Positions 29,241 to 34,131 of a stretch of 64,000 bases of DNA are shown one piece after another. The notes below the pieces were generated by a model that ran no database searches, was not told where the DNA came from, and saw only the letters and a list, made by a program, of their open reading frames with translations. This DNA is from Escherichia phage momo, in sequence record MN850580.1; one strand, given 5' to 3'. Every line of letters begins with the position of its first letter. Within the stretch, counting starts at the first letter, position 1. The translations under genes and the position numbers were made by a program.

Positions 29241-29975
29241 TTATTTCTGTAATGCGCTCTTCATTTCTGGTGTTGCAATAGTGTCAATCACACCAGTTTT
29301 ACAAGCATCGTCAAACCAGTCTGGTAAGATACCTGCTAAGAACCCATTGATATTCGTTTTAAGGTACTCTGCAATAAGGGCAGCTTCTTCTTCAATCATC
29401 TGCACAACTTCATCTGCATAAGCTGTAATCTTTGAAATACCTTCATTAATCTTACTGACAGCTTGGTTAGCTAAATCAGAAACAGTATCAAGACCCTTAT
29501 CAATAGCATCTTGTAAGTCACTTAACACACCATTAACACTATCTAGTGTACTGTTCATCATGTCAATAGCTTTTTGACCATACTCTGTAGCAACACCCAT
29601 GATACCACTGAATGGTGTACAACCAACTTGTTCTCCTGCTGCACCCATAACATTGGAATACCCCTTTGCTACCTGCATACGTGATGAAAACTCATCAATA
29701 GATTTTTGACCGTAGTCTGTCAGAGTTTTAGTAGTTGCTGTAGTGCTTGTAAGGCTTGTTGTAAAGCTGTTTAGAAGGACTGTTGTAAGTCCAGCAGCAA
29801 CAAGTTTCTCCTTCATTGTAGGGTCTGTTACAGAACTAATAGAGCTTACAAGTGATGTAGAAGCAGCTACGGTTCCACCGAGAACTGCTGCACCAGTAAT
29901 AAGCGGGTTAGAGAACCCTTTACCAGTTTTTAAGAGATTAAAAATCTCCTTACCTTGTTCTGTCATCTCTTTCAT
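29241..29975 (-). CDS. hypothetical protein embedded in tRNA array
   Basis: Track ORF 29241..30038 uses GTG that overlaps tRNA-Phe; internal ATG at 29975 has AAGGTG RBS. Confidence 0.5.
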   Translation of the reverse strand: MKEMTEQGKEIFNLLKTGKGFSNPLITGAAVLGGTVAASTSLVSSISSVTDPTMKEKLVAAGLTTVLLNSFTTSLTSTTATTKTLTDYGQKSIDEFSSRMQVAKGYSNVMGAAGEQVGCTPFSGIMGVATEYGQKAIDMMNSTLDSVNGVLSDLQDAIDKGLDTVSDLANQAVSKINEGISKITAYADEVVQMIEEEAALIAEYLKTNINGFLAGILPDWFDDACKTGVIDTIATPEMKSALQK

Positions 29976-29991
29976 TAAGCACCTTTGAAAT

Positions 29992-30068
29992 TGGTAGTCC
30001 AGTGGGATTTGAACCCTCTTCTCATGTTTTTCAGACACGCGCTTTAACCATATAAGCTACTTGGACTA
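29992..30068 (-). tRNA. tRNA-Phe (anticodon GAA)
   Basis: Acceptor UAGUCCA/UGGACUA, anticodon stem CGUGU/ACAUG, loop CUGAAAA. Confidence 0.6.
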
Positions 30069-30426: not shown

Positions 30427-30984
30427 TTACTTTCTCAGTGGATGAATAAAGAATGCCAACATAACTCTTTCCCTTGAGAATGCTCTTTCTTCTGGGACAA
30501 CACTTTTTAGTTTCCATCCAACATAAATTCTCCAGTAAAACTGTTTACCAAAGATTTTAATTGACGGAATAAAAGCGAATAATCCCCAAGCATTGTTGTT
30601 CCACATTAGGAGATAACCTGTCTGATTATCTTCAGGGTCAGAACTTACGTTGATATTACCTTTCCACTTAGTAACATCTTTTACATCTCTTCCTAATACA
30701 TGGTAAGAGAAGTTATAAGCTTTGTTTCTCCAGAGCCATCCAACTCTCTGCATATAAACACCGAGCTTGCCAATCTTTCTAATCTTAGCCCATCTTTTAA
30801 TGTGACCTTCATCACCATCAATAGGGTTGTCATATGTCTCCATCCATCTGAATCCAAAAGGTAGATGCCCTTTCTTCTCACTATAGAATGGAACTACAAA
30901 AGGTGCTAAGATAACTGCTAAGGTTGCTGCCAATGGGTCTAACAAAGCTAGGAAAATCCATGAAGCATACTTCAAATATCTCAT
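30427..30984 (-). CDS. membrane protein embedded in tRNA array
   Basis: 185 aa, N-terminal hydrophobic segments (IFLALLDPLAATLAVILAPFVVPF). Confidence 0.5.
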   Translation of the reverse strand: MRYLKYASWIFLALLDPLAATLAVILAPFVVPFYSEKKGHLPFGFRWMETYDNPIDGDEGHIKRWAKIRKIGKLGVYMQRVGWLWRNKAYNFSYHVLGRDVKDVTKWKGNINVSSDPEDNQTGYLLMWNNNAWGLFAFIPSIKIFGKQFYWRIYVGWKLKSVVPEERAFSRERVMLAFFIHPLRK

Positions 30985-31163: not shown

Positions 31164-31238
31164 TGGTACTCACTAAAGGACTTGAACCTTTTTCTTCATC
31201 TTGTAAGGGTGATGTTTTACCATATAAACTAAGCGAGT
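31164..31238 (-). tRNA. tRNA-Val (anticodon UAC)
   Basis: Acceptor ACUCGCU/AGUGAGU, anticodon loop CUUACAA (one stem mismatch). Confidence 0.5.
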
Positions 31239-31242
31239 ATGA

Positions 31243-31328
31243 AAGAGGTCTGAAGTTGTGCCGCTAACTCAACTCCGTGGAATTTGTTACGGTCTTCAGT
31301 TGACACCAGCGGTCTTTCACTTGACCTC
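31243..31328. ncRNA. unassigned structured element in tRNA array (tRNA-like ends, no canonical T-loop)
   Basis: 7-nt terminal complementarity agaggtc/gacctct enclosing internal inverted repeats (ctgaag/cttcag, ccgt/acgg); no clean cloverleaf. Confidence 0.25.
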
Positions 31329-31333
31329 TGAAT

Positions 31334-31409
31334 TGGTGCTCCCACAAGGATTCGAACCCTGATAAGTTGCTTACAAGGCAACCGTAATAGCCAATTATAC
31401 GATAGGAGC
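31334..31409 (-). tRNA. tRNA-Thr (anticodon UGU)
   Basis: Acceptor GCUCCUA/UGGGAGC, anticodon stem GUUGC/GCAAC, loop CUUGUAA. Confidence 0.7.
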
Positions 31410-31416
31410 ATTAATT

Positions 31417-31491
31417 TGGAGCATCCAGAGGGAATCGAACCCTCAACCTCAGTTTGGAAGACTGTAATTTTCCCGTTTAAACTATGGATGC
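31417..31491 (-). tRNA. tRNA-Gly (anticodon UCC)
   Basis: Acceptor GCAUCCA/UGGAUGC, anticodon loop CUUCCAA, T-arm GAGGG/CCCUC. Confidence 0.65.
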
Positions 31492-31497
31492 ACTAAT

Positions 31498-31573
31498 TGG
31501 TGGAGTCACTGAGAATTGAACTCAGTTCCCAAGTTTGCAAAACTCGAATTTTAACCATATAAACTATGACCCC
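31498..31573 (-). tRNA. tRNA-Ala (anticodon UGC)
   Basis: Acceptor GGGGUCA/UGACUCC with G3-U70, anticodon loop UUUGCAA. Confidence 0.65.
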
Positions 31574-31579
31574 ATTGTT

Positions 31580-31655
31580 TGGTACAGGTGGAGGGAATTG
31601 AACCCATCGTCTTACTGATTAAGAGTCAGCCGCATAACCATTTTGCTACACCTGC
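31580..31655 (-). tRNA. tRNA-Lys (anticodon CUU)
   Basis: Acceptor GCAGGUG/CACCUGU, anticodon stem GCUGA/UCAGU, loop CUCUUAA; T-stem has two non-canonical pairs. Confidence 0.55.
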
Positions 31656-31662
31656 ATTAATT

Positions 31663-31740
31663 TGGTAGGAGACAAGGGATTCGAACCCTCAAACATCTCG
31701 TTCTAAGCGAGATAGGTTTACCAATTACCGTCAATCTCCC
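31663..31740 (-). tRNA. tRNA with leucine anticodon UAG, class-I length
   Basis: Clean fold: acceptor GGGAGAU/GUCUCCU, anticodon stem UCUCG/CGAGA, loop CUUAGAA, 5-nt variable loop. Confidence 0.55.
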
Positions 31741-31998
31741 ATTAAATCTTTTTAGAGAACTTCTAAGAACCTAAGCAACAAGGTTCCACAACAAGCTGTA
31801 ATAACCTTAGAAGCCCTCTAAAAAGACCTAAAAAGGTCTTTGCATAGTCTTGTTTAATCCGGTGACTAGAACCTTTGGAGAGCTTGATATTATCTCTTCT
31901 CCGTGACACCTACTAGGTGCTTTACTGTGCGTGTACGACAATACACTAGGGATACCAAAGCAACATCCGAATGAAGCTTGGCTTTAAATCTTATTAGG

Positions 31999-32086
31999 CG
32001 GTAAGTAAAGGAGTCGAACCCTCACCGTATCTCTACAGTGGCAACTGTTTTCAAGACAGTTTGGCTACCATTAGCCGCTACCTACC
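31999..32086 (-). tRNA. tRNA-Ser (anticodon UGA), class II
   Basis: Acceptor GGUAGGU/ACUUACC, anticodon stem ACUGU/ACAGU, loop CUUGAAA, about 20-nt variable arm. Confidence 0.6.
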
Positions 32087-32098
32087 CCTAATAAGACT

Positions 32099-32181
32099 TT
32101 GGCATGGGACGGAGGAGTTGAACCACTTTGAAACGGTTTTGGAGGCCGTTGCTCATGCCTTAGAGTCTTAACATCGTCCCA
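32099..32181 (-). tRNA. tRNA candidate, possibly Trp (anticodon CCA), atypical D region
   Basis: Acceptor GUGGGAC/GUCCCAU, CCA encoded, loop CUCCAAA resembling tRNA-Trp; D region about 7 nt longer than usual. Confidence 0.35.
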
Positions 32182-32325
32182 CACTATAATTCGAAGCTTA
32201 CCGTATTTTCACAACACTGTAAAGCCCCTTCTCAGATTATTTACATGTTCTGGAAAACATGAGATACAGACCACCTCCTTACACGGAGACCCGATAAGGT
32301 CGTCTAAGTAATCTGCTAACTAAAT

Positions 32326-32404
32326 TGGTCGAGGCGGCAGGACTCGAACCCGCATACTCCACTTACTCGGTTAACGGCGGTTTAGAAGACCGCTGAGATA
32401 CGCC
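32326..32404 (-). tRNA. tRNA candidate, possibly Arg (anticodon UCU), atypical
   Basis: Acceptor CGGGGCG/CGCCUCG, T-arm GCGGG/CCUGC, hairpin GCGGU-CUUCUAA-ACCGC, but D-arm not resolvable. Confidence 0.35.
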
Positions 32405-32655
32405 CCGTAATTATCTTTAAAGACTCTCTTAGAAAGCCCTTAAAGATGCCCACCTTATTAATCATACCGTGGGCTAGTACGCCAAATTCTTTGATGAGGG
32501 ATTGGAAGACCTCACTGGTGTTTAGCCTATCAAGCTACTGCCAGAAAAACATTGTCGTTTGCATTTATTTTAAATTTGCAAAATAGACGCTACGCAACGA
32601 AAACTAAGGTTACTATAAAGTAGTCGCATCTCAATGTCAACAACTTTATTGAAAT

Positions 32656-32731
32656 TGGTACTGGTAGGTGGAATCGAACCACCGATGTTCCCTTATCAGG
32701 GGAGTGTTATAACCTTCTTAACTATACCAGC
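32656..32731 (-). tRNA. tRNA-Ile (anticodon GAU)
   Basis: Acceptor GCUGGUA/UACCAGU, D-stem GUUA/UAAC, anticodon loop CUGAUAA. Confidence 0.65.
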
Positions 32732-32732
32732 T

Positions 32733-32809
32733 TGGAGGTTCAGATGGGAATCGAACCCACATTCATAGGGCTTATGAGACCCTTGCATTACCTTATCTGC
32801 GACTGAACC
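32733..32809 (-). tRNA. tRNA-Met type (anticodon CAU)
   Basis: Acceptor GGUUCAG/CUGAACC, anticodon stem AGGGU/GCCCU, loop CUCAUAA. Confidence 0.6.
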
Positions 32810-32813
32810 ATAT

Positions 32814-32889
32814 TGGTAGAAGTGGAGGGATTCGAACCCATCGCCTGTCAGATTAAAAGTCTGCCGCATCACCATTCTGCTACACTTCC
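32814..32889 (-). tRNA. tRNA-Lys (anticodon UUU)
   Basis: Acceptor GGAAGUG/CACUUCU, anticodon loop CUUUUAA; same T-stem irregularity as tRNA-Lys(CUU). Confidence 0.55.
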
Positions 32890-32896
32890 ATTAAAT

Positions 32897-33035
32897 TATC
32901 TTTGTAGATAAGCTACCCAGACTTGCTTAAGGTCTGTAGCGATGTGACTTTTTGGGTTTAAATCTAGAATTTACCCTTTCACCCTTTGTGGTCGCATACT
33001 CACAGGTAAGCTTAATAACTTATCTACAAAGATAA
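32897..33035. repeat. 17-bp perfect inverted repeat bracketing about 105 bp of non-coding sequence
   Basis: ttatctttgtagataag at 32897-32913 and reverse complement cttatctacaaagataa at 33019-33035. Confidence 0.6.
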
Positions 33036-33320
33036 TTACCAGACCGTTGTTTATCATCTTAAGTGCTACCATTACACCAACTCGACCTCTGCCGAGTGAA
33101 GGAATCGAACCTTCGCCTTTTCTTTACCGAGAAATAGATTGTTTAAGTTTTGCTGTAAACGGTCTTCTGTAAATTTGTTGAGCCAGACCAAGTTTTAAAT
33201 TTTTTCAAAATTGAATTGGCTTGAAAATATCATACATTCTTGCTGTATTTGGTCTTCTACTCCTTTAAAGAATACTCGTAAGAACTCTTTAAGGGAGGGG
33301 CTAAATAGCCCTCTCAAAAT

Positions 33321-33398
33321 TGGCGGTTACGAAGGGATTTGAACCCTCATCATCTCCCGTGACAGGGGAGTATTTTAACCAAATTAAACTACATAACC
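33321..33398 (-). tRNA. tRNA-Asp (anticodon GUC)
   Basis: Acceptor GGUUAUG/CGUAACC, anticodon stem CUCCC/GGGAG, loop CUGUCAC. Confidence 0.7.
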
Positions 33399-33403
33399 TT
33401 TAT

Positions 33404-33491
33404 TGGTGTGCCGTGTAGGAGTCGAACCTACCGAGTCTCAATGACAAGGGATTTACAGTCCCCACCGCTACCATCTACGGGATAACGACAC
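33404..33491 (-). tRNA. tRNA-Tyr (anticodon GUA), class II
   Basis: Acceptor GUGUCGU/ACGGCAC, anticodon stem GGGGA/UCCCU, loop CUGUAAA, long variable arm. Confidence 0.65.
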
Positions 33492-33499
33492 ATTTAATT

Positions 33500-33576
33500 T
33501 GGCGGTTAGTCAGGGATTCGAACCCTGTGCCATTCGCTTAACAGGCGACCGCACATACCTTATGTGCTTCCTAACC
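33500..33576 (-). tRNA. tRNA-Asn (anticodon GUU)
   Basis: D-stem GCAC/GUGC, anticodon loop CUGUUAA, T-arm CAGGG/CCCUG. Confidence 0.65.
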
Positions 33577-33654
33577 TTAATACATTGCCAGACCGTGTTT
33601 TTTCTTTTATCCGCAAAAAAGTATTTTGTTGCTGAATACGGTCTTCTGCAAAAT

Positions 33655-33731
33655 TGGAGGCGGGTGCAGGAGTCGAACCTGCCGATACCATGCTAATGAG
33701 ACATGTGAGACGCCCTTTCTCTATACCCGCA
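33655..33731 (-). tRNA. tRNA-Met type (anticodon CAU), second copy
   Basis: T-arm GCAGG/CCUGC, anticodon stem CAUGU/GCAUG, loop CUCAUUA (U at 37 unusual). Confidence 0.5.
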
Positions 33732-33822
33732 ATTCTTAATGACCAGACCAAATCTCTTCTTTGTCCGATTTACCTTCAGATGAATAAGATTAAGTTTGCT
33801 GTAATTGGTCTTCTGTCAAAAC

Positions 33823-33900
33823 TGGCGTTCCAGAAGGGATTTGAACCCTCAGATATCCACTTTGAAAGAGTGGTGACTATACCATTTTGTCTACTGGAAC
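33823..33900 (-). tRNA. tRNA-Glu (anticodon UUC)
   Basis: Acceptor GUUCCAG/CUGGAAC, anticodon stem CCACU/AGUGG, loop CUUUCAA. Confidence 0.7.
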
Positions 33901-34102: not shown

Positions 34103-34131
34103 ATATTAAAGGGTATCAAACACATTGTCAA
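34103..34131 (-). promoter_or_regulatory. sigma70-type promoter driving the tRNA array (TTGACA-N17-TAATAT)
   Basis: Minus strand reads TTGACAatgtgtttgatacccttTAATAT; lies between vWA gene stop and first tRNA. Confidence 0.6.

Follow-up and report, generated by a model that had tools for sequence, protein, structure and literature searches.

Candidate Y-RNA-like small RNAs in the tRNA array of Escherichia phage momo and their linkage to a gene for a Ro60-fold protein

The tRNA array of Escherichia phage momo, analyzed here within a window of 64,000 nucleotides (nt) of sequence record MN850580.1, contains four copies of a short motif that are probably genes for Y-RNA-like small non-coding RNAs (ncRNAs), partners of a divergent phage protein of predicted Ro60 fold encoded 333 nt upstream. 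Animals, some bacteria and a few phages have known Ro60/Y RNA particles, and the locus suggests a far larger, unrecognized branch of these particles. The proposal builds on the architecture of the RNAs, on the covariation of their terminal helix, on a strand-specific linkage to the protein gene that crosses phyla (it spans phages of Gram-negative, Gram-positive and actinobacterial hosts) and on the fold of the protein, from which expression, processing, binding and function of the RNAs are inferred. The window derives from a Felixounavirus, and positions 31200-33900 are 95-98% identical to the corresponding region of more than 100 Felix O1-like phages. ARAGORN identifies 25 tRNA genes between 29067 and 33984, every one on the minus strand, and all features of the array are therefore to be read on that strand. 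A first-pass annotation of the interval 31243-33320 had drawn attention to structured spacers and to a recurring motif among these tRNA genes; this observation is confirmed, and the interpretation given to it is partly supported.

The motif, TTGCTG-N5-GGYCTTCT, is located on the plus strand at 33150, 33240, 33629 and 33796, against 0.05 occurrences expected from shuffles, which bears out the recurrence reported earlier. No further copy exists in the 64 kb, and the four form one repeat family (D7). Their 3' partners, CCAGACCRW, are found at 33039, 33183, 33588 and 33743; the heptamer CCAGACC occurs seven times on the plus strand of the window versus 1.1 expected, and four of the seven belong to the units described here. 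Read on the minus strand, the motif becomes (N)CAGAAGACC-N3-(U/A)CAGCAA and is followed 30-102 nt later by GGUCUGG, so that each copy is the 5' half of a unit of 65-135 nt. All four units (A-D; Table 1) share a fold that consists of a 3-4-bp outer helix, an internal loop (AGA in the 5' strand opposite G in the 3' strand), an inner helix of 7 bp, the single-stranded UUACAGCAA directly after it and a variable interior. Processing signals, internal promoters, degenerate or intron-containing tRNAs and small ncRNAs had all been offered as explanations, and each of these options suits some spacer of the array, the last one the motif-bearing units. The motif itself is neither a promoter nor a processing signal; it belongs to a discrete RNA, of which it forms the 5' arm together with a conserved single-stranded segment. 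The minus strand had not been taken as the RNA strand in the first-pass annotation, which overlooked the pairing between the motif and the GGTCTGG arm and the upstream Ro60-fold gene; of the four motif copies, two lie beyond the interval that it covered, as does the linked protein gene.

Unit A scores 41.0 bits with R1, a covariance model of the unit core, matches the strict pattern defined below and reaches 19.7 bits, which is sub-threshold, with the Rfam family RF01414. The corresponding values for unit B are 42.4 bits with R1 and 26.7 bits with RF01414 (E 0.09 over all 4227 families), with a fold z-score of -2.26, and unit C, which also matches the strict pattern, scores 32.2 bits with R1. 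Units C and D occupy the 431-nt gap between tRNA-Asp and tRNA-Lys. Units A-C have no tRNA-like domain, as in the bacterial Y RNA YrlB, and the interior of unit D folds into a four-way junction in which V, T, closed acceptor and D modules follow each other in this order, the RNA's own ends replacing the anticodon stem. Its acceptor-like hairpin shows compensatory changes in the phages Sf14, SUSP2 and KPS64. The tRNA-like fragment that had been noticed near 33095-33120 lies within this unit: its T arm is real (GAAGG-UUCGAUU-CCUUC on the minus strand), the acceptor described as missing adjoins it as a closed hairpin, and the fragment is a tRNA-like module in circular rearrangement rather than the remnant of a tRNA. 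ARAGORN and the Rfam tRNA model give nothing at threshold on units A-D, unit D being a partial match of 15.2 bits.

Table 1. Features of the tRNA array and adjoining region of the phage momo window (window coordinates).
Feature	Position	Strand	Remarks
Ro60-fold protein gene, 471 aa	34150..35565	-	Pfam DUF2828 + DUF7788; PHROG 850 'RNA-binding protein'
Candidate promoter TTGACA-17-TAATAT	34131->34103	-	Consensus scan, sigma-70-like, 10/12
Candidate promoter TTGACA-18-TAAAGT	34040->34011	-	Consensus scan, sigma-70-like, 10/12
Unit A	33741..33817	-	tRNA-Glu/tRNA-Met gap; GAC / AGA / AGACCAA - UUA CAGCAA ... UUGGUCU / G / GUC
Unit B	33586..33650	-	tRNA-Met/tRNA-Asn gap; UGC / AGA / AGACCGU - AUU CAGCAA ... 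ACGGUCU / G / GCA
Unit C	33181..33261	-	GAGU / AGA / AGACCAA - AUA CAGCAA ... UUGGUCU / G / GCUC
Unit D, YrlA-like	33036..33172	-	Terminal helices as in A-C; CAGCAA at 33155-33150
Unit D, V-like hairpin	33116-33138	-	Fold
Unit D, T arm, loop UUCGAUU	33098-33114	-	Fold
Unit D, acceptor-like 7-bp hairpin, closed by tetraloop	33080-33097	-	Fold
Unit D, D-arm-like hairpin, GG in loop	33062-33078	-	Fold
Two adjacent hairpins between tRNA-Asp and unit C	33262..33320	-	Fold z = -3.38, RNAalifold
Long hairpin, 22-24-bp closing stem, variable interior	32894..33037	-	Inverted repeat I2
Internal promoter TTGACA-17-TATAGT and structured leader of about 200 nt	32408..32655	-	Promoter 32640->32612, best of the region, 11/12
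Non-canonical tRNA-Arg(UCU)-like gene	32329..32407	-	Rfam tRNA 31.7 bits (gathering score 29)
Non-canonical tRNA-Trp(CCA)-like gene	32100..32181	-	Read from sequence
Spacer tRNA-Ser(UGA)/tRNA-Leu(UAG)	31741..31996	-	Conserved small hairpins
95-nt structured element, tRNA-Thr/tRNA-Val gap	31239..31333	-	Closed by AGAGGUC/GACCUCU

The terminal helix is maintained through sequence change. In a gapless alignment of 27 helix-anchored cores from seven phages the inner helix is 97.9% paired and six of its seven pairs are altered on both sides, a covariation that none of 500 shuffles attains; structures slid by 1-3 columns pair at 30-40%. Pair 8:50, for instance, is A-U or G-C and becomes U-A in a mycobacteriophage, and G-U pairs occur in the helix as well. 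The interiors are unrelated and range from 27 to 224 nt across units. Comparison with related phages, which had been suggested as a check, shows that units A-D are kept in Ounavirinae and that the other spacers are conserved unevenly. Two search tools were derived from the design. R1, trained on the helix-anchored trimmed units, recovers the units it was trained on and adds a few (L006 10238-10339 and 9424-9506), and a scan of the 64-kb window returns no additional unit (best other match E = 0.57). The strict pattern demands a 7-bp helix at -10 to -4 with at most one G-U pair, then three free bases and CAGCAA, with the partner arm located 18-260 nt downstream. Of the units withheld from training, those of the Campylobacter and Vibrio phages are recognized weakly by R1 (E about 0.5-1); R1 is too bound to gamma-proteobacterial sequence, and the pattern scan generalizes better.

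The protein gene lies upstream of the units, which are found 333-1114 nt downstream of it on the same strand. Its product is predicted to combine an alpha-helical ring domain with a vWA domain that carries a MIDAS motif (D279-x-S281-x-S283), which is the feature set of Ro60, and the relationship to Ro60 rests on this predicted fold. The DUF2828/DUF7788 family is present in more than 700 phage records and is also annotated in plants and mimivirus-like sequences; for DUF2828, UCP015417 and the Avesson 2011 pull-down, nothing usable was found in the literature searched. Two candidate promoters between the Ro-like gene and the first tRNA presumably start the tRNA/small-RNA transcript.

Units of the same design occur within about 2.5 kb of homologues of this gene, on the gene's strand, in Ounavirinae and in many other phages. 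The strict pattern identifies them in Sf14, SUSP2, KPS64, AYO145A, two metagenomic Ounavirinae-like contigs and Yersinia phage P778; in Aeromonas phage 4_4572 (8 units), Cronobacter phage S13, Campylobacter phage CP81, Mycobacterium phage Lolly9 (3) and Vibrio phage phi-pp2; and in Listeria phage List-36 (3), Staphylococcus phage SEP9 (3), Bacillus phage PJN02 (4) and Enterococcus phage Bill (2). This amounts to about 60 true matches in 259 kb versus 4.5 per strand in shuffles, and the true matches show features that the pattern does not ask for, i.e., they start with (A)AG and end with CU-G(U). In Klebsiella phage FBKp34, which belongs to another subfamily and has a 51% identical protein, the gene is followed by a promoter and then by at least three units that read (A)GAAGNN-UUACAGCAA...NNCUUCUG, one of them with T, acceptor-like and D modules; two additional motif copies were seen by eye. 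The T, acceptor-like and D modules are usually present in one unit per phage. An independent set of 75 IMG/VR loci with 38-47% identical homologues, covering 1.5 kb on each side, yields 74 matches on the gene strand (in 45 loci) against 15 on the other one; shuffles give 6.6 for each strand. In SEP9, Lolly9 and PJN02, tRNAs do not alternate with the units, and the motif is therefore tied to the gene and not to tRNA processing. Genes for RNA repair (RtcB-type ligase, RNA ligases, CCA-adding enzyme) are located nearby in List-36, Serratia phage BF, Aeromonas phage 4_4572 and S13; in the same four phages, HD phosphohydrolase and ribosome-hibernation-factor genes are also recurrent near the Ro-like gene. 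The tRNA cluster of Enterococcus phage Bill contains a transfer-messenger RNA (tmRNA). In phi-pp2 (L003 3958-4012) and CP81 (L009 5931-6021), a small unit is situated in the leader of the Ro-like gene itself. The phi-pp2 leader unit holds the Shine-Dalgarno sequence in its loop and the ATG in the 3' strand of its helix, an arrangement that suggests translational autoregulation by the Ro-like protein; ORF140 (open reading frame, ORF) of CP81, which overlaps the unit, is probably spurious.

No Rfam family attains its gathering score on any unit, the design is unrepresented in Rfam 15, and no description of the phage units was found in the literature searched. The 'species 1 and 2' RNAs of phage T4 (rnaC, rnaD) are stable small non-tRNA transcripts of a tRNA cluster, released by tRNA-type processing. 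The likeness to rnaC and rnaD is by description only, and T4 is not known to carry the DUF2828/DUF7788 family. The resemblance to YrlA and YrlB (RF02553), the partners of the bacterial Ro60 orthologue Rsr, is more extensive: the units adjoin a Ro60-fold gene on the same strand, their ends pair in a helix that is interrupted by a bulge or internal loop (as seen in the folds and in the covariation), and RNA-repair genes are present in the neighborhood in several phages. The order V, T, closed acceptor, D is the architecture of YrlA (PMC4201824), and each locus usually has one RNA of this kind with companions that have no such module, like YrlB; in the window, the tRNA-like domain is found in unit D only. 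According to the rule of Chen et al. 2014, a Y RNA lies within 4 kb of the Ro60 gene on the same strand (PMC4201824), and the window units do so with respect to the gene of a protein that is Ro60-like by fold. In contrast to YrlA/YrlB, the protein is of the DUF2828/DUF7788 and not of the TROVE type, the phage copies number up to 8 per genome, and those of the window are interleaved with tRNA genes. Phage-encoded Y-like RNAs beside Ro60 have precedents (PMC12135203; PMC4201824). In Thermus phage phiLo, the Y-like Yrl1 and Yrl2 adjoin the phiRo60 gene and bind phiRo60 and the host PNPase (PMC12135203; PDB 9L5Y, 9KOP). However, Yrl1 and Yrl2 were chosen by their CGAA motif and lie upstream of the gene, and neither CAGCAA nor a tRNA-array setting is reported for them; moreover, binding and PNPase recruitment have been demonstrated experimentally for phiLo, whereas the window locus is known from sequence alone.

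From these comparisons a pathway can be proposed. The units would be transcribed from the promoters at 34131 and 34040 within a poly-tRNA precursor and would be released by the cuts that mature the flanking tRNAs, with RNase P cleaving at the 5' end of the next tRNA and 3' trimming then proceeding to the helix. The bulged helix and CAGCAA could form the docking site on the Ro-like ring. PMC4201824, PMC12135203 and PMC7790460 describe Y RNAs that gate the ring of Rsr and tether PNPase or tRNA-repair enzymes to it. By analogy with the Rsr/Y RNA/PNPase particle and with the rsr-yrlBA-rtcBA repair operon, the phage particle may gate the protein or tether it to an exoribonuclease or to tRNA-handling enzymes. 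In infected cells this would serve the repair of RNA or its quality control, with tRNA as the probable substrate; the nearby genes for RtcB-type ligase, RNA ligase and CCA-adding enzyme fit such a role.

Several results weigh against this explanation. The protein resembles Ro60 by fold only: phmmer and a 45-sequence profile run against PDB sequences miss Ro60, and Pfam TROVE gives no match to the 471-aa protein. On the RNA side, the Rsr-binding motif GNCGAAN0-1G is absent from the units, which read (G/U)(A/G)(C/U)AGAAGACC and contain no CGAA; their nearest counterpart is (C)AGAAG, and the conserved element is the helix followed by UUACAGCAA (CAGCAA). Rfam YrlA gives no match to unit D at E <= 10, and its matches to the tRNA-like units of FBKp34 (39.6 bits, E 3e-5) and Lolly9 (37.7 bits, E 1e-4) are under the gathering score of 69 bits. 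The trimmed 27-core alignment had been fitted to the helix, and the test was therefore repeated on untrimmed sequences: MAFFT and RNAalifold applied to eight untrimmed long units from six lineages recover the 7-bp helix, with six of its seven pairs compensatory and none broken, and also, in part, the T and acceptor-like stems. Among the units withheld from its training, R1 missed those of the Mycobacterium and Cronobacter phages. With regard to the linkage, Serratia phage BF carries the gene and the strict pattern finds no unit in it, and the linkage holds for loci that were selected for carrying the gene. In a reverse scan of IMG/VR for the motif, with the pattern shifted by one base, 108 of the 120 listed matches were unstructured; among these 120, ten were structured and without the gene versus about eight by chance, and two were real, both with the gene. 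These figures give the chance rate of the structural criterion and are no measure of its specificity.

Other explanations differ in how much of this evidence they can accommodate. It is unlikely that the RNAs are real and independent of the Ro-like protein, serving to sponge up or decoy some host factor (Hfq/ProQ, a defense sensor, an anticodon nuclease or an enzyme of tRNA modification, for example) or as ligands of another nearby phage protein. Linkage is not equal to binding, a tRNA-like module could bait host enzymes directed at tRNA, a DUF5681 gene likewise accompanies the locus in Ounavirinae, and the look-alike Class I RNA of Dictyostelium, discussed below, has an RNA recognition motif (RRM) protein, Rnp1A, as its only proven direct binder (PMC7919456). 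However, the Ro-like gene is the sole gene common to all loci examined (though these were selected by it), units and gene share a strand and lie no more than a few hundred nucleotides apart in 11 or more lineages, as the rule of Chen et al. 2014 for Ro60 and Y RNAs would have it (PMC4201824), and the unit in the leader of the gene in phi-pp2 and CP81 suggests that the protein recognizes it. A purely local role, in which motif and partner arm are tRNA-processing punctuation (hairpins for RNase E or RNase III or as helpers of RNase P) with no life after cleavage, appears improbable. Most tRNA junctions of the array measure 1-8 nt and contain no such element, the design recurs beside the Ro-like gene without tRNA flanks in SEP9, Lolly9 and PJN02, and a cleavage hairpin does not need an invariant single-stranded CAGCAA or a freely varying interior that sometimes holds a whole tRNA-like module. 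These points have to be set against the position of units A and B exactly between tRNAs, where they start 6 nt past the CCA end and stop about 10 nt before the next tRNA, and against the long hairpins abutting tRNAs in other spacers of the array, which resemble processing sites.

The T-arm and D-arm sequences of unit D, the two odd tRNA-like genes nearby and the HNH endonuclease genes inserted in the region in related phages could also be read as signs of tRNA pseudogenes, decayed or rearranged through duplication and homing-endonuclease traffic, in which the motif is inherited junk. This is very improbable, as units A-C contain no tRNA sequence, compensatory changes hold the terminal helix across phyla, the motif is invariant from Listeria phages to mycobacteriophages, and the order T, closed acceptor, D is the specific permutation of YrlA and recurs in several lineages; moreover, the broken helices and motif loss of neutral decay are not seen in six Ounavirinae genomes. 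Finally, short direct repeats with inverted partners nearby in an insertion-prone region might act as DNA, e.g., by binding proteins, by serving as targets of recombination or homing or in the manner of an origin. We give this possibility almost no credence, since the repeats invariably run in the direction of the flanking tRNAs and the gene (74 versus 15 matches by strand), the helix contains G-U pairs, pairing is kept through sequence change, and the partners lie 30-224 nt apart around unrelated interiors.

A second known family shares features with the phage units. The Dictyostelium Class I RNAs (Rfam RF01414; Kjellin et al. 2021, PMC7919456) measure some 60 nt, start with AAG and have a 6-bp terminal stem with compensatory variation; an 11-nt motif, CCUUACAGCAA, adjoins the stem, and the RNAs end in CUGU (PMC7919456). 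They are reported to be absent outside Dictyostelia, and their genes have a Dictyostelium upstream sequence element (DUSE) promoter about 60 nt upstream (PMC7919456). The phage design likewise comprises about 60 nt, an AAG start in which G is paired to the C in the CUG(U) at the 3' end, a 6-7-bp terminal stem in which sequence varies and pairing is kept, and (C)UUACAGCAA right after the 5' strand, followed by a variable interior. All of these features are present in an Aeromonas phage unit that reads AAG-AAUCA-UUACAGCAA...UGAUU-CUGU, and the Aeromonas units in general have the form AAG...CUUACAGCAA...CUGU and measure 50-63 nt. The window units share the whole feature list except for their 3' end, CUGG; unit A, for example, reads AAG-ACCAA-UUACAGCAA...UUGGU-CUGG and is one 3' base off CUGU. 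RF01414 is the sole Rfam family with repeated end-to-end matches to the units, with 19.6-29.8 bits on the correct strand in Aeromonas and Klebsiella phages, and six units in a 1-kb Aeromonas stretch match it with E 0.003-1, values already multiplied by the 4227 families; its gathering score of 41.5 is not reached, the best matches being 26.7 bits in the window and 29.8 in relatives. Differences exist as well: Class I genes are eukaryotic (nuclear), dispersed and driven by DUSE, whereas the phage units lie in a poly-tRNA transcription unit, those of Ounavirinae add an outer helix, and some phage units have tRNA-like inserts. We tentatively suggest, at somewhat less than even odds, that the phage units and the Dictyostelium Class I RNAs constitute one RNA class, defined by the AAG start, the short covarying terminal stem, UUACAGCAA and the CUG(U) end and recognized by the DUF2828/DUF7788 branch of Ro60-fold proteins. 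In that event, dictyostelids would not have invented Class I RNAs in connection with multicellularity; these RNAs would represent, in amoebae, a Y-RNA-like ribonucleoprotein of wide distribution that may have come from phages, bacteria or giant viruses, and the phage loci would reveal their missing protein partner. What these abundant RNAs do, and what they bind, has been a question for 20 years; through the likeness it becomes a hypothesis that can be tested directly. A corollary concerns over-long tRNAs of 111-121 nt in FBKp34 (L002 6003-6116), S13 (L008 7896-8016 and 8026-8138) and Aeromonas phage 4_4572 (L007 3527-3643), which are annotated as tRNA-Asp, tRNA-Ser or tRNA-OTHER and have good Rfam tRNA scores. 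Between the D arm and the anticodon region they have an insert in which UU(A/U)CAGCA comes after a closed hairpin. They have the look of a circularly permuted YrlA-like unit, with an open, CCA-bearing acceptor and a loop that closes the protein-binding helix; if the common class is real, these tRNAs with a hairpin and UUCAGCA insert would be permuted YrlA-like units on which the protein may dock.

The Y-RNA-like interpretation of the locus has consequences for annotation and for phage biology. Pfam lists the protein family only as domains of unknown function and no Rfam model captures the multi-copy RNA signature. The interpretation gives phage genes labeled 'RNA-binding protein' concrete candidate ligands. 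It would also account for the recurrent unannotated gaps, spurious small ORFs and over-long 'tRNAs' of phage tRNA clusters, and the neighborhood of tRNA- and RNA-repair genes suggests that the system takes part in the contest over the integrity of tRNAs in infected cells.

The remaining spacers of the array are heterogeneous and do not represent one kind of element. ARAGORN and Rfam place no canonical tRNA in the stretches that had been listed as lacking a cloverleaf, and the Rfam search that had been recommended yields tRNAs only, at gathering thresholds and over the whole window; at E <= 10 the spacer matches are mostly noise (microRNA, plastid and tmRNA types), with the exception of the recurrent RF01414 matches. 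BLAST of spacers S1, S2, S3b, S4 and S5 against distant relatives detects no homologue, and only the Trp-like tRNA is conserved there. The hairpin pair 33262-33320 is 97% conserved in four of five relatives and 80% in the fifth (L004). The perfect 17-bp inverted repeat described earlier exists, one base away from the position it had been given (correctly 32897-32913 / 33020-33036), and extends to 22 nt at 95% (32894-32915 / 33016-33037). The 148-nt stretch containing it has a fold z-score of -6.25, and the region 32894-33037 is 65-70% identical in four of five relatives (99% in AYO145A) with 11 compensatory pairs among six genomes; it is a candidate double-strand-specific processing site or separate ncRNA. 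In the spacer upstream of tRNA-Leu, the inverted repeat I1 forms a 26-29-bp hairpin directly before the tRNA (31742-31831; z = -4.45, seven compensatory pairs), and a weak terminator-like hairpin at 31841-31820 was not called by the terminator scan. It is plausible that long duplexes abutting tRNAs are double-strand-specific processing sites, and processing signals, as proposed earlier, thus have plausible candidates in these two covarying hairpins. An internal promoter, another of the earlier proposals, has a good candidate at 32640->32612; the leader that follows is 86-99% conserved, with several hairpins, some of which have compensatory changes, ends at the non-canonical tRNA-Arg(UCU) and gives only weak tmRNA-type Rfam matches.

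The AGAGGTC/GACCTCT ends that had been noticed for 31243-31328 are borne out as the closing helix of the minimum-energy fold of the minus strand (-30.7 kcal/mol, z = -2.86). The 95-nt element closed by them (S1) has 91-97% identity across three genera, i.e., tRNA-level conservation, and is too invariant to show covariation. It contains ACUGAAGACCGU, which resembles the 5' arm of the units (direct repeat D12); it was considered as a fifth, degenerate unit and rejected for now, as it has no CAGCAA and no R1 match.

Two tRNA-like genes of the array depart from the canonical form. The tRNA-Trp(CCA)-like gene, in an array without a canonical tRNA-Trp, has an aberrant D region, an extended acceptor stem and a C-A mismatch closing the anticodon loop; it is called by neither ARAGORN nor Rfam tRNA, and only Rfam tRNA-Sec matches it (21.3 bits). 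It is 84-98% conserved, and 75-80% before tRNA-Ser(UGA) in the distant relatives L005 and L006. The tRNA-Arg(UCU)-like gene has no normal D arm and a long variable region and is not called by ARAGORN. This form is found in Felixounavirus and L004, and Mooglevirus/Suspvirus (Sf14, SUSP2, KPS64) have a canonical tRNA-Arg(UCU) at this place. Between the two, 32182-32328 is variable, with an extra tRNA-like insertion in SUSP2, KPS64 and L004; this extra gene has a long insert (GGUCAAG...GUAGGUUCGACUCCUACCUUGACUGCCA) and is absent from the window. The flanks of tRNA-Ser(UGA), 31986-31998 / 32087-32099, are complementary (13 nt, 92%) and may lengthen the acceptor stem in the precursor and form a processing helix. 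S4, S5 and S2 each end, on the RNA strand, in a hairpin whose 3' arm reads ...AAAGAU(A/U)A(U)U just before the next tRNA, and the AAAGAU repeats correspond to direct repeats D16 and D17 (32409-32423, 32894-32908, 31742-31755, 31984-31997); these ends may be a shared junction signal.

Two protein genes sit inside the tRNA array on the minus strand, one for DUF7338 (a predicted membrane protein; 30427-30984) and one for DUF7217 (29241-30038), the latter being syntenic in distant Ounavirinae-like contigs. The AYO145A RefSeq entry and other public records show small hypothetical ORFs (orf047-049) and 'pseudo-tRNA' labels over the spacers, and an ncRNA is annotated in none of them. ORFs on the plus strand of the window, e.g., 32446-32586 and 33047-33172, are most likely artefacts.

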